Source of the DNA: Psilocybe cubensis
Lineage: Eukaryota
Reading direction: 5' to 3'
Length of the DNA: 64,000 nt
Assembly: GCA_017499595.2 (NCBI GenBank)
Contig: CM039003.1
Coordinates: 1 to 64,000 of the forward strand
In this document: positions 181 through 22,984 of the stretch, piece after piece
Numbering within the stretch: position 1 is the stretch's first letter
Layout of the letters: each line of letters begins with the position of its first letter
Notes under the pieces: model-generated
Told to the model about the DNA's origin: nothing
The model's database searches: none
Seen by the model: the letters and a program-made list of their open reading frames with translations, nothing else
Translations under genes and position numbers: made by a program

Positions 181-295
181 CGTTCAATCTCACAAGAGAG
201 GGAACATCCAGAATTCGGCAGAATATCCAAATCTTACAACCGATGAAAAGAATACTAGCGCGTAAGGCGTAAAGCATTAGAAAAAAACCCTAACC

Positions 296-358
296 GTAAG
301 TATTCCTTGCTACAAAGTAACAAACATCTACTTACAAGCAACACATTGGATTAAATAG
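296..358 (+). other. Putative 63-nt GT-AG intron in the element 3' UTR (also starting at 5494, 6604, 12614, 17746 and 20588)
   Basis: GTAAGT donor and ATAG acceptor; the predicted spliced sequence occurs verbatim at 1122-1185. Confidence 0.65.
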
Positions 359-962
359 CTAAACCTAAACCTAAACCCTAAACCCTAAACCCTAAACCCT
401 AACCTAACCCCAACCCTAAGCTAACTAAGTCTAACCTTAGTAGGAAGTAAGGTAGGCGTGTGAACTTCCGAACGGCATGTGATTGTGAAGGGCCGGATCT
501 AATTTAGTACATGGGAAAAGTTACTTAGTACTTCGGGAAAAGTTCCTTAGTACCGTGGAAACATTTTTGATGGACCGGATCATGAACTGTCCAATTAAGA
601 TTCACAACAATCAATCATTCTATTGTTTGATTGTTAGGTAAGGACCCAGGTAAGCTATTTATACTCTAGACATGTGAATATTCCCATGTCGCGGTTACTC
701 GGAGCCACGTAACCAGAGTAATCTATATCCATGTGATTCACATCACAGTCAATAACCCACGATGTCAAAGAACAAAAGTGTTGGATCCACTTTTGACAGG
801 TTACCATGTGCCACATCGACCCGTGACACTCTGTTCATCAGAGACCTGTCTAACTTGACAATAAACATTGACAGATTTGTGATAGTCGGTAAGATACATG
901 ACAGCTGCGCAGCATCACTTCACGCGCTGTCATCGGATGTCTAGAACATTCCTTCTAAGAAT

Positions 963-1026
963 AGCCACTGAAGAGTCTATAAAGACGAAAGGGCTGGTTG
1001 TTGGGATCCCCCAACAGCCCTCTGGC
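963..1026 (+). ncRNA. Type I hammerhead ribozyme (copy 1), predicted cleavage after C1022
   Basis: GCCA-CTGAAGA-GTCT(ATAA)AGAC-GAAA-GGGCTG...CAGCCC-TC^TGGC: complete core and stems I-III. Confidence 0.93.
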
Positions 1027-1736
1027 CTTCTTTCTATTTCAAACTCACAGTTTAAACTAGTCGCTCGCACCTCGCTTCGCTCGGTGCTCGCTCCCCCCCT
1101 AAACCCTAAACCCTAAACCCTAAACCCTAACCCTAAACCTAAACCTAAACCCTAAACCCTAAACCCTAAACCCTAACCTAACCCCAACCCTAAGCTAACT
1201 AAGTCTAACCTTAGTAGGAAGTAAGGTAGGCGTGTGAACTTCCGAACGGCATGTGATTGTGAAGGGCCGGATCTAATTTAGTACATGGGAAAAGTTACTT
1301 AGTACTTCGGGAAAAGTTCCTTAGTACCGTGGAAACATTTTTGATGGACCGGATCATGAACTGTCCAATTAAGATTCACAACAATCAATCATTCTATTGT
1401 TTGATTGTTAGGTAAGGACCCAGGTAAGCTATTTATACTCTAGACATGTGAATATTCCCATGTCGCGGTTACTCGGAGCCACGTAACCAGAGTAATCTAT
1501 ATCCATGTGATTCACATCACAGTCAATAACCCACGATGTCAAAGAACAAAAGTGTTGGATCCACTTTTGACAGGTTACCATGTGCCACATCGACCCGTGA
1601 CACTCTGTTCATCAGAGACCTGTCTAACTTGACAATAAACATTGACAGATTTGTGATAGTCGGTAAGATACATGACAGCTGCGCAGCATCACTTCACGCG
1701 CTGTCATCGGATGTCTAGAACATTCCTTCTAAGAAT

Positions 1737-1800
1737 AGCCACTGAAGAGTCTATAAAGACGAAAGGGCTGGTTGTTGGGATCCCCCAACAGCCCTCTGGC
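1737..1800 (+). ncRNA. Type I hammerhead ribozyme (copy 2), cleavage after 1796
   Basis: Identical to copy 1. Confidence 0.93.
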
Positions 1801-1909
1801 CTTCTTTCTATTTCAAACTCACAGTTTAAACTAGTCGCTCGCACCTCGCTTCGCTCGGTGCTCGCTCCCCCCCTAAACCCAACGACTTTGCTATCACCCA
1901 TCAGTTACC

Positions 1910-4900
1910 ATGTCATCCCAATACTCTGCTGCATTCTCTCGTGCCATGTCCCCTACCCTGGACGCACTCACCCAGGCCGTCGTCAACAACACTGTCTTCG
2001 GCGTCAACGATGAAGCAGGCCGCCATAACGCTCTTATCGACGAGCTGGCCACTGTGGTCATCAAAAAAATAGCTGAGTGCCGCTCCGTTGACCAAGTCAT
2101 AGACTGCGTCTTTTTTGACTATCGTGCTGCCCTCAGGGAGTTTCTCCTCAACCTCGCATCGTGGTGCGACAAGAGGGAAACAGTCAAGGCTAGCCTCGAG
2201 CGCCTTGAATCTGCCGTTAGCGCAGGCAACACGCCCAATCGCCTTAAGGTGAAGGCACCCGAGTTCCAACTTACGAAGGAATTCGCGGATGCCGGGTCAG
2301 CGGAGGCTCTTCGAGTCTCCACTACGTTCTCTTCCGCTCGTGATGCCTTCCAAAAGGCAATTAACGACGGCGCCGTTCAGGCGAAAAAGGACGAGCTGGC
2401 TTTTTGGGATGATAAATGCGCGCTCAACTCTTGCTACGAAGCTGCTGCCCTCATCGTTAAGGCAACTTACGATGATCGCAAATCCAGCTACAAGCTCCCT
2501 GTTTTCTCTACAGACAACAAGGGAGTTCGACGTATAGCAGAGTGGGTAGTGTCTCCGCAAAAGAAAGCCGAATGCAGTGCGCTGCAAACTATACTGCCGG
2601 CGATCTTTTCTCATATCAAACAGATTGTCAACATGCGCCACCGCGCCTTGGCAATTAAGATTGAGAAAAAGCGGACGACTGCGGCAACAGCCGATGTCGA
2701 GATGGCCGATGCGACCAAACCAGGTCCATCGATTCAATCCCTTATTGATAAGGGCTTGAATGCACGTCTCAAAAAGCTCAACCTTGGATCTGTGGGCAAG
2801 AAGGCAAGTTTTCGTAACCCTTCACCCATAATTCTGGACACTAATTATTACTCTAATTACCCAGACTTTGTCTGGCCAGAATTCGTCCAAGGCTCCTCAA
2901 CCTCAGGCCAGGAAAGCTGGCCCTTCGAAACCCAAGTCGTCGTCGACGCCTTCGCAGAGGAAGCCTCAAACCAAGGCTTCCAACAAGGTCGACAACAAGA
3001 AGAAAGGGAAGGGGAGAGCTCCCGTCAAGAACAACGATCCAAAGGGAAAGGGAAAGGCAAGAGCCTAGACGCGCGGTCTACTGTAGCATCATTTACGTCG
3101 GTGAGACCCGCCTTCCCCAACTCTATTCCTGACGATATACTCACCATGACTAAAACAGACGCAGTTTCTTTTGTACACCTCAATACCCCGATTTCATTCT
3201 TATTGGCTGGCCAGTATAGATCTAGTGTACACTGTAGTCCTGGTGTTTCGGTCCCTGTTGATGTAGCAAATGATTTATCTCTTGGACTCAATTATATGTT
3301 TTTTACACTGCCTTCTAAAAATCTGATCATGCAAGCATGGAATGATTTTCAACGAAGAATAAGATGGCGTATCTATTTTTTGTTTAAAGAAGGCATGAAT
3401 AAACCTTTCGATCCAGACTATGGAGTAAGCTCTAAAAAGAAAGAGAAACCTCCAATGTTACCCGCAATTTATGGAACTTGGCCTTTCAATGGGACGTCGG
3501 TACGTTATTAAAACGATCGCAAGTATCCCGGAAGAAGCCCTTAAAGAGATGCGAAAGCACGCGTTCTCTCCTAAAAGGGACAAGATCCAAAAGTTTCTTT
3601 TCGATAACAACTATGTTATTACGATGACAGATAAGAATCTTGGCCTCGCGGTGTCTGAACGCGACTGGATATTAAGGAATGAGCTCAATCTTCTTGAAGA
3701 TGAACGCAACTACGAAGAGTTAGAATTCGAAGTTGCGCAAGAAGTTATGAAGAGCAAAATGATTCAGATGCAAACTCTCGCACGTACCGTCGAAGATGAA
3801 CATCTGTTTCTATTTGAACTTGGGTTGTCTCGATTCTTTCTATCGAATGTACCGGAAGACGGATCATCGTTCAAGTATCCTCAATTTCATGGTATACCTA
3901 AAATCCACAAGAAACCTACTGGATTTAGGCCCATAATTCCGTGTCACTCTGTAGTATTTAATCCTGCAGCCAAGTTTGTATCAAAAGAGCTTAAGCCGAT
4001 TATTAAATCGACTCCTTCAATCATTCACGGAACGAAGGATCTCTTTACGAGATTAAGCCAATTGCGTATAGACCCCAAACGACAATGGTATTTTGTCACC
4101 GGGGATGTAGTTGCTTTCTATCCCAATATTCCGTTGGACTTGTGCATCGAAATCGTTTGTAATATGTACGAGGAATGGTTACTCAACGCTTCGGAAGAGA
4201 ACACTGCATTAGCCCATATTAATCCAAATTCGTTAGAGAATAACTTGGTTAAATTGGGCATCTTTAAACGTGCTATCGAGATTGGCAATACGCAATTGAT
4301 AACACAACATGGGTCTAGATATTTTAGACAAAAAAATGGCCTCGCAATGGGCGTCGCGGATTCTCCGGACCTTGCTAACCTCTTTGGAGCCCATTTTGAA
4401 ATAAAGTCAAAAATCTTAGACCACCCAAACGTGGCCTTCTATGGAAGGTACATCGACGATTGTTTCGCAATTGTTTACGCCGAGTCCGAAGCACTTGCAC
4501 TTAATCTTATTAAAGAAACAATAAAGTTCGATGGTTGTGTTATCGAATGGGCTGTCTCCTCGTCGGGATGTCAATTTCTCGATGCTTTCATATTCAAGGA
4601 GTCTGGAAAACTTCATTGGAAGCCATTTGTCAAGACAGGAAACAACCGAGAACGAGTTCCATGGGTATCACATCATCCTTTGGACGTCAAACGTGGCGTC
4701 TACATTGGAGAGTTATCCAGGTTAGCCGTGCTATGTAGTACCAAGGAAATCTACATCGGAGCAATTAGAGACCTTAACGCTCTCTATTTGATGCGCGGTT
4801 ATCCCGAAAACCTAGTCATGTCTTGGTGTAAGAAGAATATACAAGAACGTTGGGAAAAGCGATTCGCTTTACGAGTCGCAGAGCACGACGAATCCATTCT

Positions 4901-5444
4901 TGTACTTAAAACCAGATTTGATCAGGTATGGAATTGGTTTTCAGCTGCTGAACTTGGAAAGACTGTTACCGAGTACTGGTCGGCATGGTATGAACATGCC
5001 GAGAAAGGTTTGTATAGTGCAGACTCGTCCAGACCCCTTATCAAACCAGATCCAAATTACGTTCACGACCTCGATGATGTTCGCCCGGAGCTGTTCACAC
5101 AGATCCTCGTGGACGGAGAAACTGAGTTCGTACCGGATTTGAGGAAGATAGGACTACTCGGAAGTCGTTGGATAGTATCGCGAAAACGCAATACTAATCT
5201 TTTCGACCTTGCAAATGTGTGGAAGAAAACAGTCTTTCGTAAACTGGATGAAAACATCGCTGAAAAAGGTGGTGTTGTTCCCGAAACTCAAAACGTTAAT
5301 GAAACTTATCATTCTGCTTTAGTTGAAGCTGCTGAACAGATAAGTATCGAAAGTGATAACGAGATAATACTTCATAGACGTTCAATCTCACAAGAGAGGG
5401 AACATCCAGAATTCGGCAGAATATCCAAATCTTACAACCGATGA
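1910..5444 (+). pseudogene. ORF1-RT polyprotein of element A, split by a +1 frameshift near 3461-3463 (ORFs 1910-3511 and 3471-5444)
   Basis: TTACCCGCAA here versus TTACCGCAA in copies B and C; otherwise colinear with the 1176-aa ORF; could be a homopolymer assembly error. Confidence 0.8.
2804..2864 (+). other. Putative 61-nt GC-AG spliceosomal intron inside the element ORF (also 9928-9988 and 15057-15117)
   Basis: AAG|GCAAGT donor, CTAAT branch sites, CCCAG acceptor; removal joins ORF1 in frame to the Lys-rich ORF ending at 3068. Confidence 0.75.
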
Positions 5445-6160
5445 AAAGAATACTAGCGCGTAAGGCGTAAAGCATTAGAAAAAAACCCTAACCGTAAGTA
5501 TTCCTTGCTACAAAGTAACAAACATCTACTTACAAGCAACACATTGGATTAAATAGCTAAACCTAAACCTAAACCCTAAACCCTAAACCCTAAACCCTAA
5601 CCTAACCCCAACCCTAAGCTAACTAAGTCTAACCTTAGTAGGAAGTAAGGTAGGCGTGTGAACTTCCGAACGGCATGTGATTGTGAAGGGCCGGATCTAA
5701 TTTAGTACATGGGAAAAGTTACTTAGTACTTCGGGAAAAGTTCCTTAGTACCGTGGAAACATTTTTGATGGACCGGATCATGAACTGTCCAATTAAGATT
5801 CACAACAATCAATCATTCTATTGTTTGATTGTTAGGTAAGGACCCAGGTAAGCTATTTATACTCTAGACATGTGAATATTCCCATGTCGCGGTTACTCGG
5901 AGCCACGTAACCAGAGTAATCTATATCCATGTGATTCACATCACAGTCAATAACCCACGATGTCAAAGAACAAAAGTGTTGGATCCACTTTTGACAGGTT
6001 ACCATGTGCCACATCGACCCGTGACACTCTGTTCATCAGAGACCTGTCTAACTTGACAATAAACATTGACAGATTTGTGATAGTCGGTAAGATACATGAC
6101 AGCTGCGCAGCATCACTTCACGCGCTGTCATCGGATGTCTAGAACATTCCTTCTAAGAAT

Positions 6161-6224
6161 AGCCACTGAAGAGTCTATAAAGACGAAAGGGCTGGTTGTT
6201 GGGATCCCCCAACAGCCCTCTGGC
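6161..6224 (+). ncRNA. Type I hammerhead ribozyme (copy 3)
   Basis: Identical to copy 1. Confidence 0.93.
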
Positions 6225-6362
6225 CTTCTTTCTATTTCAAACTCACAGTTTAAACTAGTCGCTCGCACCTCGCTTCGCTCGGTGCTCGCTCCCCCCCTAA
6301 ACCCTAAACCCTAAACCCTAAAACCCTAAACCCTAACCCCTAAACCCTAAACCCTAAACCCT

Positions 6363-7401
6363 AACATCGCTGAAAAAGGTGGTGTTGTTCCCGAAACTCA
6401 AAACGTTAATGAAACTTATCATTCTGCTCTAGTTGAAGCTGCTGAACAGATAAGTATCGAAAGTGATAACGAGATAATACTTCATAGACGTTCAATCTCA
6501 CAAGAGAGGGAACATCCAGAATTCGGCAGAATATCCAAATCTTACAACCGATGAAAAGAATACTAGCGCGTAAGGCGTAAAGCATTAGAAAAAAACCCTA
6601 ACCGTAAGTATTCCTTGCTATAAAGTAACAAACATCTACTTACAAGCAACACTTTGGATTAAATAGCTAAACCTAAACCCTAAACCCTAAACCCTAAACC
6701 CTAACCTAACCCCAACCCTAAGCTAACTAAGTCTAACCTTAGTAGGAAGTAAGGTAGGCGTGTGAACTTCCGAACGGCATGTGATTGTGAAGGGCCGGAT
6801 CTAATTTAGTACATGGGAAAAGTTACTTAGTACTTCGGGAAAAGTTCCTTAGTACCGTGGAAACATTTTTGATGGACCGGATCATGAACTGTCCAATTAA
6901 GATTCACAACAATCAATCATTCTATTGTTTGATTGTTAGGTAAGGACCCAGGTAAGCTATTTATACTCTAGACATGTGAATATTCCCATGTCGCGGTTAC
7001 TCGGAGCCACGTAACCAGAGTAATCTATATCCATGTGATTCACATCACAGTCAATAACCCACGATGTCAAAGAACAAAAGTGTTGGATCCACTTTTGACA
7101 GGTTACCATGTGCCACATCGACCCGTGACACTCTGTTCATCAGAGACCTGTCTAACTTGACAATAAACATTGACAGATTTGTGATAGTCGGTAAGATACA
7201 TGACAGCTGCGCAGCATCACTTCACGCGCTGTCATCGGATGTCTAGAACATTCCTTCTAAGAATAGCCACTGAAGAGTCTATAAAGACGAAAGGGCTGGT
7301 TGTTGGGATCCCCCAACAGCCCTCTGGCCTTCTTTCTATTTCAAACTCACAGTTTAAACTAGTCGCTCGCACCTCGCTTCGCTCGGTGCTCGCTCCCCCC
7401 C
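6363..7401 (+). mobile_element. 5'-truncated Coprina-like copy (ORF 3' end plus terminal repeat)
   Basis: Begins mid-ORF (AACATCGCTGAAAAAGG) directly after telomeric tract 6298-6364. Confidence 0.92.
7265..7328 (+). ncRNA. Type I hammerhead ribozyme (copy 4)
   Basis: Identical to copy 1. Confidence 0.93.
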
Positions 7402-7521
7402 TAAACCCTAAACCCTAAACCCTAAACCCTAAACCCTAAACCCTAAACCCTAAACCCTAAACCCTAAACCCTAAACCCTAAACCCTAAACCCTAAACCCT
7501 AAACCCTAAACCCTAAACCCT
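7402..7521 (+). repeat. Internal telomeric tract; acts as the 5' exon of the group I intron
   Basis: About 17 TAAACCC units. Similar internal tracts at 1100-1176, 6298-6364, 18542-18626, 21393-21441 and 21629-21681. Confidence 0.95.
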
Positions 7522-8287
7522 AAAACCGTTACGGAGGTCATACAAACTCGTTTTAGTCTAGCTGCGGGGATATCCAGCTATGATGACTTTGTAATTCGAG
7601 GGCGCGCAGTTCTTCAATGGGTATGGACATCAGGTGAGAGTACACTGGGGGTTGTCAGGACCAGCTCTGCTGGATACGCTCCTGGCAAGTCGGTTGCAGC
7701 CGGCGACACTACCGAATTGCTGGGACGTCCTAAAGCTTGTGGGTACCGCCGACCGCTGGAAACAGCCTAGGCACCGGTGGCGACCGGGTATGGTAACAAT
7801 CCCCAAGATTCAGCGAAAGCTGGAATGGATAATCAGCAGCGAATCCGTAACGGTCACGCCGACGGAAGCGTTCAACGACTAGGTGGTAGTGGGGTCTTCG
7901 GATCTTAAGATATAGTCTTGGGAGTGGGGAAACCCACATCTGGTATCTAAACCGCGCCTCGCTGCTTACGAGGACGGCCCGAAGTCCAGAACCGCTTAAA
8001 ACGCGGGTGACCCGGCCTCCCCTTAGTAAAGGGAGTTAACACAAGGATGGACAAATAGTTCGTCGCCGGAAATGAACCTGTGGCTGTAATGGCTGATGTG
8101 GCGCCCCTTGGTAAAGGGCTTAAAGGGTATTAGCCTGCCATGTCCAATGGCATGAGAGTGTCCCTTGGTAAAGGACTTAATAGGCAATAGCCTGCTCTTT
8201 TGTCATGAGCGGTATGTAGTGATCGTTTGCCTGTACGGTAGCGCCCATTGCTTGCACTGGTCCACGCCCGTAAAAAATCACGAGCCG
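7522..8287 (+). ncRNA. Group I intron (subgroup IC1-like ribozyme), ORF-less, inserted in a telomeric repeat
   Basis: P3 CACTACCG 7707-14 / TGGTAGTG 7884-91; P4 TGCTGG 7718-23 / TCAGCA 7833-38; P5abc with A-rich bulge and GAAA tetraloop; R GTTCAACGACTA; S TAAGATATAGTC; P7 A(C)GACTA/TAGTCT; P8 UUCG hairpin; P9 GTGGG-GAAA-CCCAC; preceded by U7521 and ends in G8287. Confidence 0.93.
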
Positions 8288-8862
8288 AAACCCTAAACCC
8301 TAACCTAACCCCAACCCTAAGCTAACTAAGTCTAACCTTAGTAGGAAGTAAGGTAGGCGTGTGAACTTCCGAACGGCATGTGATTGTGAAGGGCCGGATC
8401 TAATTTAGTACATGGGAAAAGTTACTTAGTACTTCGGGAAAAGTTCCTTAGTACCGTGGAAACATTTTTGATGGACCGGATCATGAACTGTCCAATTAAG
8501 ATTCACAACAATCAATCATTCTATTGTTTGATTGTTAGGTAAGGACCCAGGTAAGTTATTTATACTCTAGACATGTGAATATTCCCATGTCGCGGTTACT
8601 CGGAGCCACGTAACCAGAGTAATCTATATCCATGTGATTCACATCACAGTCAATAACCCACGATGTCAAAGAACAAAAGTGTTGGATCCACTTTTGACAG
8701 GTTACCATGTGCCACATCGACCCGTGACACTCTGTTCATCAGAGACCTGTCTAACTTGACAATAAACATTGACAGATTTGTGATAGTCGGTAAGATACAT
8801 GACAGCTGCGCAGCATCACTTCACGCGCTGTCATCGGATGTCTAGAACATTCCTTCTAAGAA

Positions 8863-8929
8863 TAGCCACTGAAGAGTCTATAAAGACGAAAGGGCTGGTT
8901 GTTGGGATCCCCCAACAGCCCTCTGGCTA
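8863..8929 (+). ncRNA. Type I hammerhead ribozyme (copy 5), stem I extended to TAGCCA/TGGCTA
   Basis: Same core; variant lengthens stem I. Confidence 0.93.
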
Positions 8930-9033
8930 CTTTCCATTTAACTCCCAGTTTAAACTAGTCGCTCGCACCTCGCTTCGCTCGGTGCTCGCTCCCCCCCTAA
9001 ACCCAACGACTTTGCTATTATCCATCAGCCACT

Positions 9034-12000
9034 ATGTCATCTCAATACTCTGCTGCTTTCTCTCGTGCCATGTCCCCCACCCTGGACGCACTCACCCAGG
9101 CCGTCGTCAACAACACCGTTTTCGGCGTCAACGATGAAGCAGGCCGCCATAACGCTCTGATCGACGAGCTGGCCACTGTGGTCATCAAAAAAATAGCTGA
9201 GTGCCGCTCCGTTGACCAAGTCATAGACTGCGTCTTTTTTGACTATCGTGCTGCCCTTAGGGAGTTTCTCCTCAACCTCGCATCGTGGTGCGATAAGAGG
9301 GAAACAGTCAAGGCTAGCCTCGAGCGCCTTGAATCTGCCGTTAGCGCAGGCAACACGCCCAATCGCCTTAAGGTGAAGGCACCCGAGTTCCAACTTACGA
9401 AGGAATTCGCGAATGCCGGGTCAGCGGAGGCTCTTCGAGTCTCCACTACGTTCTCTACCGCTCGTGACGCCTTCCAAAAGGCAATTAACGACGGCGCCAT
9501 TCAGGCGAAAAAGGACGAGCTGACTTTTTGGGATGATAAATGCGCACTCAACTCTTGCTACGAAGCTGCTGCCCTCATCGTTAAGGCAACTTACGATGAT
9601 CGCAAATCCAGCTACAAGCTCCCTGTTTTCTCTACAGATAACAAGGGAGTTCGACGTATAGCAGAGTGGGTAGTGTCTCCGCAAAAGAAAGCCGAATGCA
9701 GTGCGCTGCAAACCATACTGCCGGCGATCTTTTCTCACATCAAACAAATTGTCAACATGCGCCACCGCGCTTTGGCAATTAAGATTGAGAAAAAGCGGAC
9801 GACTGCGGCAACAGCCGATGTCGAGATGGCCGACGCGACCAAACCAGGTCCGTCGATTCAATCCCTTATTGATAAGGGCTTGAATGCACGTCTCAAGAAG
9901 CTCAACCTTGGATCTGTGGGCAAGAAGGCAAGTTTTCGTAACCCTTCACCCATAATTCTGGATACTAATTACTACTCTAATTACCCAGACTTTGTCTGGC
10001 CAGAATTCATCCAAGGCTCCTCAACCTCAGGCCAAGAAAGCTGGCCCTTCGAAACCCAAGTCGTCGTCGACGCCTTCGCAACGCAAGCCTCAAACCAAGG
10101 CTTCCAACAAGGTCGACAACAAGAAGAAAGGGAAGGGGAGAGCTCCCGTCAAGAACGATCCAAAGGGAAAGGGAAAGGCAAGAGCCTAGATGCGCGGTCT
10201 AATGTAGTACCTTTTACGTCGGTGAGACCCGCCTTCCCCAACTCTATTCCTGACGATATACTCACCATGACTAAAACAGACGCAGTTTCTTTCGTACACT
10301 TACATACTCCAATATCATTCTTGTTGGCTGGCCAGTATCGTAGTAGTGTACATTGTAGTCCTGGTGTTTCTGTCCCTGTTGATGTAGCAAACGATCTCTC
10401 TCTCGGACTTAATTATATGTTTTTCACTCTGCCTTCTAAAAGTCTGATCATGCAAGCATGGAATGATTTCCAACGAAGAATAAGATGGCGTATCTATTTT
10501 TTGTTTAAGGAAGGCATGAATAAACCTTTTGATCCAGATTATGGAGTAAGCTCAAAAAAGAAAGAGAAACCTCCTGTATTACCGCAATATATGGAACTTG
10601 GCCTTTCGATGGGACGTCGGTACGTGCAACGCACGATCGCAAGTATCCCGGAAGAAGCCCTTACGGAGATGCGAAAGCACGCGTTCTCTCCTAAAAGGGA
10701 CAAGATCCGTAAGTTTCTTATCGATAACAACTATGTTATTACGATGACAGATAAGAATCTTGGCCTCGCGGTGTCTGAACGCGACTGGATATTAAGGAAT
10801 GAGCTCAATCTTCTTGAAGATGAACGTAATTACGAAGAGTTAGAATTCGAAGTTGCGCAAGAAGTTATGAAGAGCAAAATGATTCAGATGCAAACGCTCG
10901 CACGTACTGTCGAAGATGAACATCTGTTTCTATTTGAACTTGGGTTGTCTCGATTCTTTCTATCGAATGTACCGGAAGACGGATCATCGTTCAAGTATCC
11001 TCAATTTCATGGTATACCTAAAATCCACAAGAAACCTACTGGATTTAGGCCCATAATTCCGTGTCACTCTGTAGTATTTAATCCTGCAGCCAAGTTTGTA
11101 TCAAAAGAGCTTAAGCCGATTATTAAATCGACTCCTTCAATCATACACGGAACGAAGGATCTCTTTACGAGATTAAGCCAATTGCGTATAGACTCCAAAA
11201 GACAATGGTATTTTGTCACTGGAGATGTAGTTGCTTTCTATCCCAATATTCCGTTGGACTTGTGCATCGAAATCGTTTGTAGTATGTACGAGGAATGGTT
11301 ACTCAACGCTTCGGAAGAAAACACTGCATTAGCCCATATTAATCCAAATTCGTTAGAGAATAACTTGGTTAAATTGGGCATCTTTAAACGTGCTATCGAG
11401 ATTGGCAATACGCAATTGATAACACAACATGGGTCTAGATATTTTAGACAAAAAAATGGCCTCGCAATGGGCGTCGCGGATTCTCCGGACCTTGCTAACC
11501 TCTTTGGAGCCCATTTTGAAATAAAGTCAAAAATCTTAGACCACCCAAACGTGGCCTTCTATGGAAGGTACATCGACGATTGTTTCGCAATTGTTTACGC
11601 CGAGTCCGAAGCACTTGCACTTAATCTTATTAAAGAAACAATAAAGTTCGATGGTTGTGTTATCGAATGGGCTGTTTCCTCGTCGGGATGTCAATTTCTC
11701 GATGCTTTCATATTCAAGGAGTCTGGAAAACTTCATTGGAAGCCTTTTGTCAAGACAGGAAACAACCGAGAACGAGTTCCATGGGTATCACATCATCCTT
11801 TGGACGTCAAACGTGGCGTCTACATTGGAGAGTTATCCAGGTTAGCCGTGCTATGTAGTACCAAGGAAATCTACATCGGAGCAATTAGAGACCTTAACGC
11901 TCTCTATTTGATGCGCGGTTATCCCGAAAACCTAGTCATATCTTGGTGTAAGAAGAATATACAAGAACGTTGGGAAAAGCGATTCGCTTTACGAGTCGCA

Positions 12001-12564
12001 GAGCACGACGAATCCATTCTTGTACTTAAAACCAGATTTGATCAGGTATGGAATTGGTTTTCAGCTGCTGAACTTGGAAAAACTGTTACCGAGTACTGGT
12101 CGGCATGGTATGAACATGCCGAGAAAGGTTTGTATAGTGCAGACTCGTCCAGACCCCTTATCAAACCAGATCCAAATTACGTTCACGACCTCGATGATGT
12201 TCGCCCGGAGCTGTTCACACAGATCCTCGTGGACGGAGAAACTGAGTTCGTACCGGATTTGAGGAAGATAGGACTACTCGGAAGTCGTTGGATAGTATCG
12301 CGAAAACGCAATACTAATCTTTTCGACCTTGCAAATGTGTGGAAGAAAACAGTCTTTCGTAAACTGGATGAAGACATCGCTGAAAAAGGTGGTGTTGTTC
12401 CCGAAACTCAAAACGTTAATGAAACTTATCATTCTGCTTTAGTTGAAGCTGCTGAGCAGATAAGTATCGAAAGTGATAACGAGATAATACTTCATAGACG
12501 TTCAATCTCACAAGAGAGGGAACATCCAGAATTTGGCAGAATATCCAAATCTTACAACCGATGA
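9034..12564 (+). CDS. Penelope-like (Coprina) ORF1-reverse transcriptase polyprotein, 1176 aa, no endonuclease
   Basis: RT motifs PKIHK..FRPII, GDVVAFYPNIP, QKNGLAMG..SP.LANLF, YGRYIDD and FLD; helical, probably coiled-coil N-terminus; C-terminus lacks GIY-YIG. Confidence 0.95.
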   Translation: MSSQYSAAFSRAMSPTLDALTQAVVNNTVFGVNDEAGRHNALIDELATVVIKKIAECRSVDQVIDCVFFDYRAALREFLLNLASWCDKRETVKASLERLESAVSAGNTPNRLKVKAPEFQLTKEFANAGSAEALRVSTTFSTARDAFQKAINDGAIQAKKDELTFWDDKCALNSCYEAAALIVKATYDDRKSSYKLPVFSTDNKGVRRIAEWVVSPQKKAECSALQTILPAIFSHIKQIVNMRHRALAIKIEKKRTTAATADVEMADATKPGPSIQSLIDKGLNARLKKLNLGSVGKKASFRNPSPIILDTNYYSNYPDFVWPEFIQGSSTSGQESWPFETQVVVDAFATQASNQGFQQGRQQEEREGESSRQERSKGKGKGKSLDARSNVVPFTSVRPAFPNSIPDDILTMTKTDAVSFVHLHTPISFLLAGQYRSSVHCSPGVSVPVDVANDLSLGLNYMFFTLPSKSLIMQAWNDFQRRIRWRIYFLFKEGMNKPFDPDYGVSSKKKEKPPVLPQYMELGLSMGRRYVQRTIASIPEEALTEMRKHAFSPKRDKIRKFLIDNNYVITMTDKNLGLAVSERDWILRNELNLLEDERNYEELEFEVAQEVMKSKMIQMQTLARTVEDEHLFLFELGLSRFFLSNVPEDGSSFKYPQFHGIPKIHKKPTGFRPIIPCHSVVFNPAAKFVSKELKPIIKSTPSIIHGTKDLFTRLSQLRIDSKRQWYFVTGDVVAFYPNIPLDLCIEIVCSMYEEWLLNASEENTALAHINPNSLENNLVKLGIFKRAIEIGNTQLITQHGSRYFRQKNGLAMGVADSPDLANLFGAHFEIKSKILDHPNVAFYGRYIDDCFAIVYAESEALALNLIKETIKFDGCVIEWAVSSSGCQFLDAFIFKESGKLHWKPFVKTGNNRERVPWVSHHPLDVKRGVYIGELSRLAVLCSTKEIYIGAIRDLNALYLMRGYPENLVISWCKKNIQERWEKRFALRVAEHDESILVLKTRFDQVWNWFSAAELGKTVTEYWSAWYEHAEKGLYSADSSRPLIKPDPNYVHDLDDVRPELFTQILVDGETEFVPDLRKIGLLGSRWIVSRKRNTNLFDLANVWKKTVFRKLDEDIAEKGGVVPETQNVNETYHSALVEAAEQISIESDNEIILHRRSISQEREHPEFGRISKSYNR

Positions 12565-13279
12565 AAAGAATACTAGCGCTTAAGGCGTAAAGCATTAGAA
12601 AAAAACCCTAACCGTAAGTATTCCTTGCTATAAAGTAACAAACATCTACTTACAAGCAACACATTGGATTGAATAGCTAAACCTAAACCTAAACCCTAAA
12701 CCCTAAACCCTAAACCCTAACCTAACCCCAACCCTAAGCTAACTAAGTCTAACCTTAGTAGGAAGTAAGGTAGGCGTGTGAACTTCCGAACGGCATGTGA
12801 TTGTGAAGGGCCGGATCTAATTTAGTACATGGGAAAAGTTACTTAGTACTTCGGGAAAAGTTCCTTAGTACCGTGGAAACATTTTTGATGGACCGGATCA
12901 TGAACTGTCCAATTAAGATTCACAACAATCAATCATTCTATTGTTTGATTGTTAGGTAAGGACCCAGGTAAGTTATTTATACTCTAGACATGTGAATATT
13001 CCCATGTCGCGGTTACTCGGAGCCACGTAACCAGAGTAATCTATATCCATGTGATTCACATCACAGTCAATAACCCACGATGTCAAAGAACAAAAGTGTT
13101 GGATCCACTTTTGACAGGTTACCATGTGCCACATCGACCCGTGACACTCTGTTCATCAGAGACCTGTCTAACTTGACAATAAACATTGACAGATTTGTGA
13201 TAGTCGGTAAGATACATGACAGCTGCGCAGCATCACTTCACGCGCTGTCATCGGATGTCTAGAACATTCCTTCTAAGAA

Positions 13280-13346
13280 TAGCCACTGAAGAGTCTATAA
13301 AGACGAAAGGGCTGGTTGTTGGGATCCCCCAACAGCCCTCTGGCTA
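13280..13346 (+). ncRNA. Type I hammerhead ribozyme (copy 6)
   Basis: As copy 5. Confidence 0.93.
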
Positions 13347-13991
13347 CTTTCCATTTAACTCCCAGTTTAAACTAGTCGCTCGCACCTCGCTTCGCTCGGT
13401 GCTCGCTCCCCCCCTAAACCCTAAACCCTAACCTAACCCCAACCCTAAGCTAACTAAGTCTAACCTTAGTAGGAAGTAAGGTAGGCGTGTGAACTTCCGA
13501 ACGGCATGTGATTGTGAAGGGCCGGATCTAATTTAGTACATGGGAAAAGTTACTTAGTACTTCGGGAAAAGTTCCTTAGTACCGTGGAAACATTTTTGAT
13601 GGACCGGATCATGAACTGTCCAATTAAGATTCACAACAATCAATCATTCTATTGTTTGATTGTTAGGTAAGGACCCAGGTAAGCTATTTATACTCTAGAC
13701 ATGTGAATATTCCCATGTCGCGGTTACTCGGAGCCACGTAACCAGAGTAATCTATATCCATGTGATTCACATCACAGTCAATAACCCACGATGTCAAAGA
13801 ACAAAAGTGTTGGATCCACTTTTGACAGGTTACCATGTGCCACATCGACCCGTGGCACTCTGTTCATCAGAGACCTGTCTAACTTGACAATAAACATTGA
13901 CAGATTTGTGATAGTCGGTAAGATACATGACAGCTGCGCAGCATCACTTCACGCGCTGTCATCGGATGTCTAGAACATTCCTTCTACGAAT

Positions 13992-14056
13992 AGCCACTGA
14001 AGAGTCTATAAAGACGAAAGGGCTGGTTGTTGGGATCCCCCAACAGCCCTCTGGCT
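13992..14056 (+). ncRNA. Type I hammerhead ribozyme (copy 7)
   Basis: Same core; stem I AGCCA/TGGCT. Confidence 0.93.
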
Positions 14057-14162
14057 TCTTTCCATTTTAACTCCCAGTTTAAACTAGTCGCTCGCACCTC
14101 GCTTCGCTCGGTGCTCGCTCCCCCCCTAAACCCAACGACTTTGCTATCACCCATCAGCCACT

Positions 14163-17100
14163 ATGTCATCCCAATATTCTGCTGCTTTCTCTCGTGCCAT
14201 GTCCCCCTCCCTGGACGCACTCACCCAGGCCGTCGTCAACAACACCGTCTTCGGCGTCAACGATGAAGCAGGCCGCCAAAACGCTCTCATCGACGAGCTG
14301 GCCACTGTGGTCATCAAGAAAATAGCTGAGTGCCGCTCCGTTGATCAAATAATAGACTGCGTCTTTTTTGACTATCGCGCTGCCCTTAGGGAGTTTCTCC
14401 TCAACCTCGCATCGTGGTGCGACAAGAGGGAAACAGTCAGGGCTAGCCTTGAGCGCCTTGAACTTGCCGTTAGCGCAGGCAGCACCCCCAATCGCCTTAA
14501 GGTGAAGGCTCCCGAGTTCCAACTCACGAAGGAATTCGCGGATGCCGGGTCAGCGGAGGCTCTTCGAGTCTCTACTACGTTCTCCACCGCTCGTGACGTC
14601 TTCCAAAAGGCGATTAACGACGGCGCCATTCAGGCGAAAAAGGACGAACTGGCCTTTTGGGAGGATAAATGCGCACTCGCTTCTTGCTATGAAGCTGCTG
14701 CGGTCATCGTTAAGACAACTTACGAAGACCGCAAGTCCAGCTATAAGCTCCCCGTTTTCTCTACAGACAACAAGGGAGTTCGTCGCATAGCAGAGTGGGT
14801 AACGTCGCCGCAAAAGAAAGCCGAGTGCAGTGCGCTGCAAACTATACTGCCGGCTATCTTTTCTCATATCAAACAAATTGTCAAATTGCGCCACCGCGCT
14901 TTGGCAATTAAGATTGAGAAAAAGCGGTCGACCGCGGCTACAGCCGATGTCGAGATGGCCGACGCGACCAAACCAGGTCCGTCGATTCAATCCCTTATTG
15001 ATAAGGGCTTGAATGCACGTCTTAAGAAGCTCAACCTTGGATATGTGGGCAAGAAGGCAGGTTTTCGTAACCCTTCACCCATAACTTTGGATACTAATTA
15101 TTATTCTAATTACCCAGACTTCGTCTGGCCAGAGTTCGTCCAAGGCTCCTCAACCTCAGGCCAAGAAAACTGGCCCTTCGAAACCCAAGTCGTCGTCGAC
15201 GCCTTCGCAACGCAAGCCTCAAACCAAGGCTTCCAACAAGGTCGACAACAAGAAGAAAGGGAAGGGGAGAGCTCCCGTCAAGAACAACAATCCAAAGGGA
15301 AAGGGAAAGGCAAGAGCCTAAACGCGCGGTCTAATGTAGTACCTTTTACGTCGGTAAGACCCGCTTTCCCCAACTCTATTCCTGACGATATACTCACCAT
15401 GACTAAAACAGACGCAGTTTCATTTGTACACCTCAATACCCCAATTTCTTTCTTATTGGCTGGCCAGTATAGATCTAGTGTACATTGTAGTCCTGGTGTT
15501 GTAGTTCCGGTTGATGTAGCAAACGACTTATCTCTCGGTTTAAATTATATGTTTTTCACACTGCCTTCTCAAAGTCTGATCATGCAAGCATGGAATGATT
15601 TTCAACGAAGAATAAGATGGCGTATCTATTTTTTGTTTAAAGAAGGCATGAATAAACCTTTTGATCCAGATTATGGAGTAAGTTCTAAGAAAAAAGAAAA
15701 ACCTCCTGTATTACCGCAATATATGGAACTTGGCCTTTCGATGGGACGTCGGTACGTGCAACGCACGATCGCAAGTATCCCGGAAGAAGCCCTCACGGAG
15801 ATGCGAAAGCACGCGTTCTCTCCTAAAAGGGACAAGATCCGTAAGTTTCTTATCGATAACAACTATGTTATTACGATGACAGATAAGAATCTTGGCCTCG
15901 CGGTGTCTGAACGCGACTGGATAATAAGGAATGAGCTCAATCTTCTTGAAGATGAACGCAACTACGAAGAGTTAGAATTCGAAGTTGCTCAAGAAGTTAT
16001 GAAGAGCAAAATGATTCAGATGCAAACGCTCGCACGTACTGTCGAAGATGAACATCTGTTTCTATTTGAACTTGGGTTGTCTCGATTTTTTCTATCAAAT
16101 GTACCGGAAGACGGATCATCGTTCAAGTATCCTCAATTTCATGGTATACCTAAAATCCACAAAAAACCTACTGGATTTAGGCCCATAATTCCGTGTCACT
16201 CTGTAGTATTTAATCCTGCAGCCAAGTTTGTATCAAAAGAGCTTAAGCCGATTATTAAATCGACTCCTTCAATCATTCACGGAACGAAGGATCTCTTTAC
16301 GAGATTAAGCCAATTGCGTATAGACCCCAAACGACAATGGTATTTTGTCACCGGGGATGTAGTTGCTTTCTATCCCAATATTCCGTTGGACTTGTGCATC
16401 GAAATCGTTTGTAATATGTACGAGGAATGGTTACTCAACGCTTCGGAAGAAAACACTGCATTAGCCCATATTAATCCAAATTCGTTAGAGAATAACTTGG
16501 TTAAATTGGGCATCTTTAAACGTGCTATCGAGATTGGCAATACGCAATTGATAACACAACATGGGTCTAGATATTTTAGACAAAAAAATGGCCTCGCAAT
16601 GGGCGTCGCGGATTCTCCGGACCTTGCTAACCTCTTTGGAGCCCATTTTGAAATAAAGTCAAAAATCTTAGACCACCCAAACGTGGCCTTCTATGGAAGG
16701 TACATCGACGATTGTTTCGCAATTGTTTACGCCGAGTCCGAAGCACTTGCACTTAATCTTATTAAAGAAACAATAAAGTTCGATGGTTGTGTTATCGAAT
16801 GGGCTGTTTCCTCGTCGGGATGTCAATTTCTCGATGCTTTCATATTCAAGGAGTCTGGAAAACTTCATTGGAAGCCATTTGTCAAGACAGGAAACAACCG
16901 AGAACGAGTTCCATGGGTATCACATCATCCTTTGGACGTCAAACGTGGCGTCTACATTGGAGAGTTATCCAGGTTAGCCGTACTATGTAGTACCAAGGAA
17001 ATCTACATCGGAGCAATTAGAGACCTTAACGCTCTCTATTTGATGCGCGGTTATCCCGAAAACCTAGTCATGTCTTGGTGTAAGAAGAATATACAAGAAC

Positions 17101-17696
17101 GTTGGGAAAAGCGATTCGCTTTACGAGTCGCAGAGCACGACGAATCCATTCTTGTACTTAAAACCAGATTTGATCAGGTATGGAATTGGTTTTCAGCTGC
17201 TGAACTTGGAAAGACTGTTACCGAGTACTGGTCGGCATGGTATGAACATGCCGAGAAAGGTCTGTATAGTGCAGACTCGTCCAGACCCCTTATCAAACCA
17301 GATCCAAATTACGTTCACGACCTCGATGATGTTCGCCCGGAGCTGTTCACACAGATCCTCGTGGACGGAGAAACTGAGTTCGTACCGGATTTGAGGAAGA
17401 TAGGACTACTCGGAAGTCGTTGGATAGTATCGCGAAAGCGCAATACTAATCTTTTCGACCTTGCAAATGTGTGGAAGAAAACAGTCTTTCGTAAACTGGA
17501 TGAAAACATCGCTGAAAAAGGTGGTGTTGTTCCCGAAACTCAAAACGTTAATGAAACTTATCATTCTGCTCTAGTTGAAGCTGCTGAACAGATAAGTATC
17601 GAAAGTGATAACGAGATAATACTTCATAGACGTTCAACCTCACAAGAGAGGGAACATCCAGAATTCGGCAGAATATCCAAATCTTACAACCGATGA
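14163..17696 (+). CDS. Penelope-like (Coprina) ORF1-reverse transcriptase polyprotein, 1177 aa
   Basis: Same RT motifs (YIDD) as copy B; uninterrupted ORF. Confidence 0.95.
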   Translation: MSSQYSAAFSRAMSPSLDALTQAVVNNTVFGVNDEAGRQNALIDELATVVIKKIAECRSVDQIIDCVFFDYRAALREFLLNLASWCDKRETVRASLERLELAVSAGSTPNRLKVKAPEFQLTKEFADAGSAEALRVSTTFSTARDVFQKAINDGAIQAKKDELAFWEDKCALASCYEAAAVIVKTTYEDRKSSYKLPVFSTDNKGVRRIAEWVTSPQKKAECSALQTILPAIFSHIKQIVKLRHRALAIKIEKKRSTAATADVEMADATKPGPSIQSLIDKGLNARLKKLNLGYVGKKAGFRNPSPITLDTNYYSNYPDFVWPEFVQGSSTSGQENWPFETQVVVDAFATQASNQGFQQGRQQEEREGESSRQEQQSKGKGKGKSLNARSNVVPFTSVRPAFPNSIPDDILTMTKTDAVSFVHLNTPISFLLAGQYRSSVHCSPGVVVPVDVANDLSLGLNYMFFTLPSQSLIMQAWNDFQRRIRWRIYFLFKEGMNKPFDPDYGVSSKKKEKPPVLPQYMELGLSMGRRYVQRTIASIPEEALTEMRKHAFSPKRDKIRKFLIDNNYVITMTDKNLGLAVSERDWIIRNELNLLEDERNYEELEFEVAQEVMKSKMIQMQTLARTVEDEHLFLFELGLSRFFLSNVPEDGSSFKYPQFHGIPKIHKKPTGFRPIIPCHSVVFNPAAKFVSKELKPIIKSTPSIIHGTKDLFTRLSQLRIDPKRQWYFVTGDVVAFYPNIPLDLCIEIVCNMYEEWLLNASEENTALAHINPNSLENNLVKLGIFKRAIEIGNTQLITQHGSRYFRQKNGLAMGVADSPDLANLFGAHFEIKSKILDHPNVAFYGRYIDDCFAIVYAESEALALNLIKETIKFDGCVIEWAVSSSGCQFLDAFIFKESGKLHWKPFVKTGNNRERVPWVSHHPLDVKRGVYIGELSRLAVLCSTKEIYIGAIRDLNALYLMRGYPENLVMSWCKKNIQERWEKRFALRVAEHDESILVLKTRFDQVWNWFSAAELGKTVTEYWSAWYEHAEKGLYSADSSRPLIKPDPNYVHDLDDVRPELFTQILVDGETEFVPDLRKIGLLGSRWIVSRKRNTNLFDLANVWKKTVFRKLDENIAEKGGVVPETQNVNETYHSALVEAAEQISIESDNEIILHRRSTSQEREHPEFGRISKSYNR

Positions 17697-18406
17697 AAAG
17701 AATACTAGCGCGTAAGGCGTAAAGCATTAGAAAAAAACCCTAACCGTAAGTATTCCTTGCTATAAAGTAACAAACATCTACTTACAAGCAACACTTTGGA
17801 TTAAATAGCTAAACCTAAACCCTAAACCCTAAACCCTAAACCCTAACCTAACCCCAACCCTAAGCTAACTAAGTCTAACCTTAGTAGGAAGTAAGGTAGG
17901 CGTGTGAACTTCCGAACGGCATGTGATTGTGAAGGGCCGGATCTAATTTAGTACATGGGAAAAGTTACTTAGTACTTCGGGAAAAGTTCCTTAGTACCGT
18001 GGAAACATTTTTGATGGACCGGATCATGAACTGTCCAATTAAGATTCACAACAATCAATCATTCTATTGTTTGATTGTTAGGTAAGGACCCAGGTAAGCT
18101 ATTTATACTCTAGACATGTGAATATTCCCATGTCGCGGTTACTCGGAGCCACGTAACCAGAGTAATCTATATCCATGTGATTCACATCACAGTCAATAAC
18201 CCACGATGTCAAAGAACAAAAGTGTTGGATCCACTTTTGACAGGTTACCATGTGCCACATCGACCCGTGGCACTCTGTTCATCAGAGACCTGTCTAACTT
18301 GACAATAAACATTGACAGATTTGTGATAGTCGGTAAGATACATGACAGCTGCGCAGCATCACTTCACGCGCTGTCATCGGATGTCTAGAACATTCCTTCT
18401 ACGAAT

Positions 18407-18471
18407 AGCCACTGAAGAGTCTATAAAGACGAAAGGGCTGGTTGTTGGGATCCCCCAACAGCCCTCTGGCT
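18407..18471 (+). ncRNA. Type I hammerhead ribozyme (copy 8)
   Basis: As copy 7. Confidence 0.93.
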
Positions 18472-18626
18472 TCTTTCCATTTTAACTCCCAGTTTAAACT
18501 AGTCGCTCGCACCTCGCTTCGCTCGGTGCTCGCTCCCCCCCTAAACCCTAAACCCTAAACCCTAAACCCTAAACCCTAAACCCTAAACCCTAAACCCTAA
18601 ACCCTAAACCCTAAACCCTAAACCCT

Positions 18627-21392: not shown

Positions 21393-21440
21393 TAAACCCT
21401 AAACCCTAAACCCTAAACCCTAAACCCTAAACCCTAAACC

Positions 21441-21628
21441 CAGCATCACTTCACGCGCTGTCATCGGATGTCTAGAACATTCCTTCTAAGAATAGCCACT
21501 GAAGAGTCTATAAAGACGAAAGGGCTGGTTGTTGGGATCCCCCAACAGCCCTCTGGCCTTCTTTCCATTTAACTCACAGTTTAAACAAGTCGCTCGCACC
21601 TCGCTTCGCTTGGTGCTCGCTCCCCCCC
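21441..21628 (+). mobile_element. Innermost short 3' fragment of the terminal repeat (hammerhead plus terminal hairpin only)
   Basis: Last ~190 nt of the repeat, lying between two telomeric tracts. Confidence 0.9.
21494..21557 (+). ncRNA. Type I hammerhead ribozyme (copy 10)
   Basis: Same as copy 1. Confidence 0.92.
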
Positions 21629-22984
21629 TAAACCCTAAACCCTAAACCCTAAACCCTAAACCCTAAACCCCTAAACCCTAACGTCTCTCGCTCGTCTCCA
21701 TGTCGTCTTTTATGAAAGTGCAAGAATGGGTCCCGAGAGGCTTTTAGAAGCAGCAGCAGAAGACGCGGCTTATCTCCAATCCTCGTCAAGCCTCCGCACT
21801 TCAAATATTACCCTTTGACACATTCTCCCTACTGCCACTGCATGTCGAAAGCACGGCCATGGCCAGTTCCTCCGTCTTCTTCCTTACCGCAACCATATCA
21901 CACCGCCCCTCATCTGAATATCCGCGGAGCAGCTCAATAACGGCCTCTATACTCAAGCTGAAGTGGTGACGGACACCTCCTCGATTTACATATCACGCTT
22001 TAATGGTACGTACACTTCCACATTTACCATCACATCCGTCTCCGTCTACTCCACAATGTCACCATCACTGACTCCCGCCATATACAACCTCACCAACTCC
22101 CCCTTTTACAACCACCCCCCGCAGATCCTCTCCTACGGATACCGGATACATCCGCCACCAATTTGACAACCAATAAGTCAACACTCACAAAATAAGTCAA
22201 CACTCACAAGACGCAAGCGAAATTGACTGAAGACAGAGGAGGATGATACGAGTGTAATGGGTACCATTCAATCGTGCGTATTCCCATCCTCCTATCTTAA
22301 TCCCACTCCGTAACCACAACCAACTGTGTCCAGCTCAACACTGTTGCCCAACTCTTGCACCATTTTCAAGCAAACCCGCCTCCAAACACACACACAATTT
22401 ATACATCCCCCCCAACCTCACTTCATGACCACAATGGCAACTTTGACATTAACATCAACACACTAGCTGCAAAAAGTCATACGTGCACAATCCGCTGCAG
22501 ACCCCCTCCACCCACTCATGACTTACAGCTCCCCCGCTCGTCTCTGTGCCTGTCCCAGTGCCGCGTCAACTCTGCGCAGGGCGTCTCGATATGCCATATG
22601 CGCAAACCGCTAATGTCCATATATTAAAGTTGGCAATCGCCCATGCGGACTCTGGGTTACTCGCTAATAACGAACGTGATGCTGTGTGGACGCTTCTATT
22701 TCCACCTCCTTCCTTGGTGTTTGGATGGGTGTTGCGATGGAAGGAAAATATACAGAAGGATGCAGGCCTGCTTCCATGTGTGGATTCCAGGGTTTAGCTA
22801 CATCCCCGTCCGATAACCTATGTTACCTACTAATTCAACATCAAATATACATACTCGCCTACAATATGCAAAGACCTCATGATCTAAACTACATCCCCAA
22901 CCTTCTTGTCTGCTAGAAACTCGCTGCGTAGTATGGGTGCTATAGTACATTAGACACCATGTATCGCCGCCCGAACGTGGAATC

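Follow-up and report, generated by a model that had tools for sequence, protein, structure and literature searches.

A group I intron in the telomeric retroelement array of a Psilocybe cubensis chromosome end

The insert and its ribozyme core

The stretch analysed here comprises the first 64,000 nucleotides (nt) of contig CM039003.1 of Psilocybe cubensis (assembly GCA_017499595.2), and is referred to as the window; judged by its sequence, the source genome appears to be Psilocybe cubensis-like. It opens with approximately 26 AAACCCT units, a telomere repeat count from which we take the window to be a chromosome end, and positions 1-21,700 are made up of seven retroelement end-additions (E1 to E7), all on the + strand, that were delineated by BLAST comparison with a reference full copy (13426-17819). 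The same type of terminal unit closes each addition and is followed by a telomere tract of 2-18 repeats. Between E3 and E4 lies a 766-nt insert (7522-8287, + strand), which we read as a whole group I intron and which occurs once in the window. It sits exactly at the E3/E4 boundary, 10 nt upstream of the full-length E4 and on the sense strand of the elements, and none of the seven additions of the array contains any other foreign sequence. Deletion of the 766 nt gives back an unbroken CCCTAAA repeat that continues in phase.

The ribozyme was identified with the Rfam model RF00028 (Intron_gpI), which matches positions 7643-7939 of the + strand over its full length (model positions 1-253) with a score of 70.9 bits (gathering score 50) and an E-value of 5.6e-16. 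Nothing else in the 64 kb reaches the gathering score of an Rfam family. When positions 7300-8500 were scanned permissively, the sole match besides the core was one at chance level to the signal recognition particle (SRP) RNA (14.7 bits versus a gathering score of 65), and no ribosomal RNA (rRNA) family was matched at E≤10. Standard base pairing was checked by script for the P1-P9 set of helices and for a P9.0 of two base pairs (bp), with P5b and P5c placed by eye; the joining segment J8/7 together with the 3′ strand of P7 reads UAAGAUAUAGUC. The IC1 subgroup is defined by a P5abc extension together with a P2.1 helix, and here a P5abc extension with the A-rich bulge GUAUGGUAA is accompanied by a P2.1 at 7689-7704. 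By this layout, with all core helices pairing, the ribozyme is assigned to the nuclear IC1 kind, and it may still be active at the present day.

The longest stop-to-stop frame of the insert is 101 amino acids (aa) and has no protein-database homologue at E≤10. None of the seven insert frames matches a homing endonuclease or any other Pfam family at E<0.1. There was also no exact protein match to six translated open reading frames (ORFs) of the insert, although five of these use GTG or TTG starts (first residue V or L) and only the one with an ATG start is a fair test. An organellar origin is unlikely given the base composition, 57% G+C in the core and 53% G+C in the insert.

Guide sequence, junctions and related sequences

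The proposed guide sequence, GGGGUU (7648-7653), adjoins P2 and pairs at all six positions with AACCCU (7516-7521) in the telomeric flank, forming a P1 that closes with a U.G wobble. This hexamer occurs at no other place in the insert. First-order Markov simulations of the insert (20,000 runs) placed GGGGTT 0-3 nt from P2 in 0.15% of the runs and somewhere in the 132-nt leader in 5.9%. In a control set it was present in none of 93 introns, and GGGG in four of them, within a 40-nt window around the start of the Rfam model; these controls are, however, mostly not nuclear introns of ribosomal DNA (rDNA), a eukaryotic rRNA match being found in one of 66 scanned loci. The set derives from 94 full-length Rfam intron matches in 66 of 120 fetched loci, one of which lay too near the end of its locus. 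The P1 pairing holds with the present telomeric flank, and the exon at the original home of the intron is a separate matter. We considered whether the leader itself could be a home 5′ exon and rejected this, as no U in 7522-7646 follows a sequence complementary to the guide; the stretch 7522-7647 also lacks both CCC and any alternative 5′ splice site. An alternative guide, GGAGGU at 7533-38, was likewise rejected, as it would leave a hairpin and some 60 further nt between P1 and P2.

At the other end of the insert, CC at 8285-86 can pair with GG at 7920-21 to form the 2-bp P9.0. The 3′ tail contains three hairpins (8017-8035, 8103-8119 and 8160-8176) with a common 9-nt loop, CUURGUAAA, whose stems differ in sequence and yet stay paired (CUCCC/GGGAG, GCCC/GGGC and GUCC/GGAC); the latter two hairpins lie in a 57-nt tandem duplication. 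The hairpin motif was not found elsewhere in the window, and it could be a docking module for a protein or an RNA. The possibility that the tail mimics a 3′ module of the retroelement was rejected, there being no similarity in a comparison within the window.

The features named so far bear out much of the original prediction, which had claimed a complete IC1-type core, a unique 766-nt insert whose removal restores the repeat, a 6-bp P1 with a U.G wobble, a possible CC/GG P9.0, telomeric flanks and the lack of a homing endonuclease. The search that it had proposed with RF00028 in an Infernal-type program returned the one match described above.

The 3′ junction is the informative one of the two and the 5′ junction is not. 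The last G of the insert is joined to AAACCCTAAA, which leads directly to position 1 of the terminal unit at the start of E4. In all other copies (CCCTAAA)2-3 stands directly before unit position 1, and the fullest leader, that of E2, is approximately 38 nt long. The joint therefore falls on one of the four CCCU/AAA bonds of the E4 leader (the slash marking the bond), and this is the bond that the guide specifies. We estimate that a random 5′ end within a leader of about 38 nt would fall at such a bond roughly once in 10 cases, and far less often if the whole element is considered.

The 5′ side has a different character. Perfect repeats stand before each of the truncated additions E1, E3, E6 and E7, where they break off at differing phases, and the 18 perfect repeats 5′ of the insert were most likely added by telomerase in a similar manner. 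The original prediction had allowed for telomerase healing at this junction, and the likeness of the repeats to the other healed 5′ ends of the array supports it. Its broader claim of precise insertion into a telomeric repeat stands only in part: the 3′ joint does lie at CCCT/AAA, whereas the insert occupies a boundary between two end-additions, the upstream repeats are those expected of healing, the continuity of phase across the insert is an event of about 1 in 7, and AAA is present at both junctions, such that both boundaries may be shifted by as much as 3 nt (four equivalent cuts).

No further copy was recovered from assembled sequences. An exact 22-mer of the core had no match in public metagenome, genome and viral contigs, and a looser core pattern led to the 120 loci mentioned above, six of which gave BLAST matches to the core of 29-60 nt (eight alignments), with no close relative among them. 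Most of the 66 loci that were scanned with Rfam are intron-rich and not rDNA, and they were used as the control set alone. We note that several of the metagenome contigs among them (L001, L017, L029, L036, L089, L007 and L117) are densely packed with group I introns, 4-7 in a few kb each, with no rRNA match.

Sequencing runs give a different picture. Of the sampled insert words, shares of 0.97-1.00 occur in seven runs that belong to two studies (P1 and P2) and include four possible source runs, and shares of 0.62-0.71 in three further runs with the coded labels A, C and D (0.62-1.00 across labels A-D). Runs with shares of 0.04-0.07, which come from air and ice metagenomes and from organisms E-G, were left out of account. 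By calculation the shares of 0.62-0.71 correspond to about 1% divergence. Such near-identical sequence in other strains and species points to a heritable home locus steadier than one telomeric joint. This home locus may lie elsewhere in the genome, with rDNA as the obvious candidate. PMC1299323 describes fungal rDNA sites, S497 and S1210, whose 5′ exons end in CCCU, and states that a match of 4-8 nt to the 5′ exon suffices for reverse splicing; together these make an rDNA intron with a GGGG-type guide plausible. For a related agaric, PMC11433599 places the rDNA about 10 kb or less from a telomere, an arrangement in which intron RNA would be made near a chromosome end. Neither telomeres nor rDNA come up in the P. 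cubensis genome paper.

Routes of entry

We interpret the insert as a DNA copy of the RNA of a complete nuclear IC1 group I intron that came from an external home and entered through attachment by its own ribozyme followed by the retroelement pathway, and give this reading a probability of roughly 0.55. Free intron RNA, made at a home locus elsewhere, would be present, and its guide GGGGUU would bind AACCCU in the (CCCUAAA)n 5′ leader of a sense transcript of the element now at 8298-13421. The terminal G of the intron would then carry out the first reverse-splicing step by attacking the CCCU/AAA bond, and the second step may or may not follow. The resulting chimera (intron, AAACCCUAAA and element) would be reverse-transcribed by the reverse transcriptase (RT) of the element onto an exposed G-strand end, telomerase would add the 18 perfect repeats to the end of the complementary DNA (cDNA), and further elements, E3 among them, would be stacked on afterwards.

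Since the insert runs in the sense direction and is placed as a further end-addition would be, all the routes that fit are RNA-mediated, and a route through the RT of the retroelement, as originally predicted, seems the most economical placement. The half-reaction is the simplest form of it, because perfect repeats and not leader variants (CTAAACC, as found before E2) lie upstream of the insert; full reverse splicing would therefore need a cDNA stop within about 11 nt. The perfect 5′ repeats match the healing of E1, E3, E6 and E7 and fit the half-reaction without extra assumptions. In favour of ribozyme-guided entry is also that the only foreign sequence in the array belongs to the one class of RNA that is able to ligate itself to a complementary RNA.

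Several observations weigh against this reading. The U before the insert and its terminal G are a product of the choice of cut, because AAA stands at both junctions, and 7522 and 8287 are proposed as true intron ends from this single copy, with junctions taken from the assembly. The 126-nt leader is an unusual spacing between splice site and guide and folds no more stably than shuffled sequences (z +0.58), and the 3′ tail is long with an unremarkable fold energy (z −0.89). There is no P10, in that positions 7640-7647 (GUACACUG) do not pair with AAACCC. The 5′ junction is uninformative, because telomerase healing of any cDNA end would have the same look, and the make-up of the control set noted above limits what the rarity of the guide can tell. 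The match of guide and flank is itself a precondition of ribozyme-guided entry and does not discriminate it from capture in a genome that has an intron with that guide.

Passive capture of intron RNA is unlikely, though it is the main rival. RTs of the type that lacks long terminal repeats (non-LTR type) are capable of end-to-end template jumping, and chimeric retrocopies are known. Here the RT, on reaching the 5′ end of the E4 template, would switch to the 3′ end of a free intron RNA present in abundance and telomerase would heal the product; in a variant of this route a short telomere would prime directly on the intron RNA. No ribozyme chemistry would be involved in either case, and the guide match would be a coincidence inherited from the home exon. 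The final structure would be the same as that expected from ribozyme-guided entry, the 5′ junction is a typical healed end, and the boundary between the E4 unit and E5, with about two repeats, shows that additions onto very short tracts do occur. The rDNA sites with CCCU-ending exons, as given in PMC1299323, also mean that a GGGG-type guide need not be telomere-related. Capture would require, however, that the E4 template ended exactly at CCCU/AAA, with the low odds estimated above, and that the intron was taken up rather than a far more abundant RNA, and no other foreign RNA is found in the seven additions; it also leaves unexplained the match of all six guide bases, including that of UU to the AA of the repeat. 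It is the position of the 3′ joint and the self-ligating nature of the sole foreign RNA that separate ribozyme-guided entry from passive capture.

The original prediction had gone further and proposed a lineage specialised for telomeres, whose normal home would be the C-strand telomeric repeat RNA of Coprina elements and which, as a ribozyme parasite, would be carried from one chromosome end to another and across species. The perfect 6-bp P1 at the canonical guide position, the intact core and the lack of rRNA flanks agree with this, and the presence of the sequence, or of a version about 99% similar, in runs under labels A, B, C and D indicates persistence beyond one strain. A steady home locus, for example in rDNA, would account for such persistence at least as well. 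The window holds a single copy despite the many CCCT/AAA sites of the 21.7-kb array, the full-length E2 and E5 are without an insert, and perfect repeats rather than leader variants lie upstream of it; the intron forms no P10 with the repeat, bears no likeness to the retroelement 3′ module and carries its tail motif in the insert alone. We consider the specialised lineage improbable, and the claim of a ribozyme parasite of Coprina is not sustained. It is similarly doubtful that an intron family is at home in telomere-retroelement RNA and reinserts at CCCU/AAA across several Psilocybe-related species, which would make it the first rDNA-independent nuclear lineage.

Least probable, and in our view very unlikely, is that no RNA-mediated event took place, and that a piece of DNA, for example from rDNA, was taken up when a break in a telomere tract was repaired, or a highly repetitive end was mis-joined in the long-read assembly. 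The flanking units are 99-100% identical and hard to assemble, and the junctions are those of the assembly. Against this, the insert is a unique sequence between in-phase repeats and in the sense orientation of the element, its edges hold no rRNA, its last bases include the CC and the G required of a group I 3′ end, and all sampled insert words are present in seven runs of two studies, which supports the sequence and not the junctions.

The retroelement array and related systems

The coordinates of the array and of the intron features are collected in Table 1. The terminal unit of E3 is 100% identical to the units at 397, 1171 and 5595; the units distal to the insert are 100% identical to one another, and the proximal units are 99% identical to the distal ones. 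The 1176-aa ORF of E4 is 99% identical to Psilocybe cubensis RT domain-containing proteins, for which PF00078 is a precomputed assignment. The ORF itself has no Pfam match at E≤0.001, RVT_1 scores 27.3 bits in a truncated element copy, just below the Pfam cut-off of 29.6, and an endonuclease family was reported for none of the element ORFs scanned. By this sequence evidence the elements have an RT ORF without an endonuclease domain, and we call them Coprina-like, a name that follows the original prediction and the element architecture. The RT ORF of E2 (within 1910-5444) is split into overlapping frames, 1910-3511 and 3471-5444, and E2 is therefore considered a frameshifted copy, unlike E4 and E5.

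Table 1. Positions in the window of the array members, the proposed intron features and the associated motifs
Feature	Position	Strand	Remarks
E1	181-1106	+	189 nt of 3′ end, linker, 700-nt unit (BLAST)
E2	1171-6304	+	Full length (BLAST)
E3	6363-7408 (6363-7398 without the repeats that follow)	+	5′-truncated: 315 nt of 3′ untranslated region (UTR), telomere-like linker, 700-nt terminal unit (BLAST)
(CCCTAAA)18	7399-7524	+	Perfect repeats on 5′ side of insert; 7399-7521 if 7522-7524 are counted to the insert
Leader	7522-7647	+	126 nt between proposed 5′ splice site and guide (would-be loop L1)
P2	7654-60/7680-86	+	Inner hairpin 7661-65/7669-73; script-checked
P2.1	7689-93/7700-04	+	Directly before P3; script-checked
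P3	7707-13/7885-91	+	Rfam alignment and pair check
P4	7718-23/7833-38	+	Rfam alignment and pair check
P5, P5a	within core 7707-7937	+	Script-checked
P5b	7755-58/7763-66	+	GAAA loop 7759-62; placed by eye
P5c	7774-77/7784-87	+	Placed by eye
Extra hairpin with GAAA	7811-22	+	
P6, P6a	within core 7707-7937	+	Script-checked
P7	7877-81/7913-17	+	5 bp, G-binding pair G7877-C7917
P8	7892-96/7901-05	+	UUCG loop
P9	7924-28/7933-37	+	GAAA loop
3′ tail	7940-8287	+	348 nt, ends in G8287 (proposed omega-G)
AAACCCTAAA	8288-8297	+	3′ flank, read as remnant of the (CCCUAAA)n 5′ leader of E4
E4	8298-13421	+	Full length: unit, 1176-aa RT ORF (9034-12564), 3′ UTR, linker, unit (BLAST)
E5	13426-18548	+	Full length (BLAST)
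E6	18627-21399	+	2035 nt, linker, unit (BLAST)
E7	21441-21635	+	Part of a unit (BLAST)
Linkers	355-396, 5550-5594, 6660-6698, 12670-12714, 17800-17840, 20645-20688		
Hammerhead-like motif	13261-13345; also at 943, 1717, 6141, 7245 (7245-7329, E3), 8844, 13972, 18387, 21474		

In every element a conserved linker lies between the 3′ UTR and the terminal unit, and consists in order of variant repeats (CTAAACC, 1-2 copies), three perfect CCCTAAA and the degenerate repeats that open the unit. E2 has the most complete 5′ end (about 1133), and it starts inside linker-type sequence, which suggests that transcripts begin there. Each 700-nt unit also contains a hammerhead-like motif (CUGAAGAG followed by GACGAAA, a helix and CUC) approximately 70 nt before the end of the unit and the telomere repeats. 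Nine exact copies of its core and ten CUGAAGAG boxes were counted in the window, and the copy at 13261-13345 is sub-threshold in Rfam (RF03152, 29.1 bits versus a gathering score of 56.3, E-value 0.013; RF00008, 19.5 bits). The telomere unit is the 7-nt CCCTAAA/TTTAGGG both at 1-180 and in all internal tracts (for example 7399-7524 and 18539-18622). In the related agaric Agrocybe chaxingu the repeat is the 6-nt CCCTAA/TTAGGG, as given in PMC11433599. If the repeat has changed within the Agaricales, the telomerase RNA template would be worth a look.

The Tetrahymena large-subunit (LSU) intron is the type of the nuclear IC1 group I introns. With those found in rRNA genes the insert has in common the P3-P8 core, P2 and P2.1 before P3, a P5abc with GAAA and an A-rich bulge, a GAAA-capped P9, the G-binding pair in P7 and a guide directly 5′ of P2. 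It differs from them in that its host is not an rRNA gene and its flanks hold no rRNA, in the 126 nt from splice site to guide, in the 348-nt tail with three repeated hairpins and in the lack of a P10. Without an endonuclease ORF it also differs from mobile introns that depend on homing endonucleases, and in this it resembles fungal rDNA introns, which according to PMC1299323 are mostly without an endonuclease gene. A 2013 review (PMC3679873) states that every nuclear group I intron known lies in a functional rRNA gene.

The array itself invites comparison with the Coprina and Athena Penelope-like elements that lack an endonuclease, EN(−) (Gladyshev & Arkhipova 2007, as cited in PMC8557442 and PMC13159263). 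Such elements attach to G-overhangs through telomere-complementary repeats in their RNA and are reverse-transcribed there, after which telomerase adds repeats (PMC8557442, PMC13159263). Terminal location, separation by telomere repeats and telomere-complementary repeats are all present in the array, as are other features described for these elements in the same sources: co-oriented stacks with terminal direct repeats, and 5′ truncations healed by telomerase. A hammerhead-like motif, sub-threshold in Rfam as noted above, lies near the telomere-complementary repeats. The difference is that one member of the present stack is a ribozyme intron and not an element copy.

In chimeras of small nuclear RNAs (snRNAs) with long interspersed nuclear elements (LINEs), too, a foreign RNA has been copied in sense at the 5′ end of the element. 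Chimeric retrocopies of this kind arise from template switching by RTs. The RNA in the present case differs in being able to make an RNA-RNA joint of its own, and the joint lies where its guide predicts. With the reverse-splicing model of intron spread (Bhattacharya et al. 2005, PMC1299323; PMC3679873), its nearest precedent in mechanism, the insert shares a short guide-complementary site (here 6 nt), the lack of an endonuclease and the need for an RT step. In that model the usual target is rRNA, followed by an RT step and recombination into rDNA, whereas the target proposed here is a retroelement transcript with its own RT and its own route to the chromosome end.

The 2013 review states that the reverse-splicing route has never been followed through to reverse transcription and genomic integration (PMC3679873), and in the literature searched, that is outside subscription journals and supplements, no group I intron is described from a telomeric or retroelement context. 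The insert is a nuclear group I intron outside rDNA that fits the reverse-splicing route by both its junction and its guide, and the setting of the locus, in which retroelement RNA is copied onto chromosome ends, supplies the missing RT and integration steps ready-made. Passive capture, if it is what took place, would still make this the first intron retrocopy recorded at a telomere, and a specialised lineage would amount to a ribozyme hyper-parasite of a telomeric retroelement. If ribozyme-guided entry is correct, the insert would be a natural fossil of the whole reverse-splicing pathway, the intron together with a CCCUAAA-leader RNA and the retroelement RT would offer a simple experimental system, and telomeric retroelement arrays would be able to record RNA-RNA ligation events.

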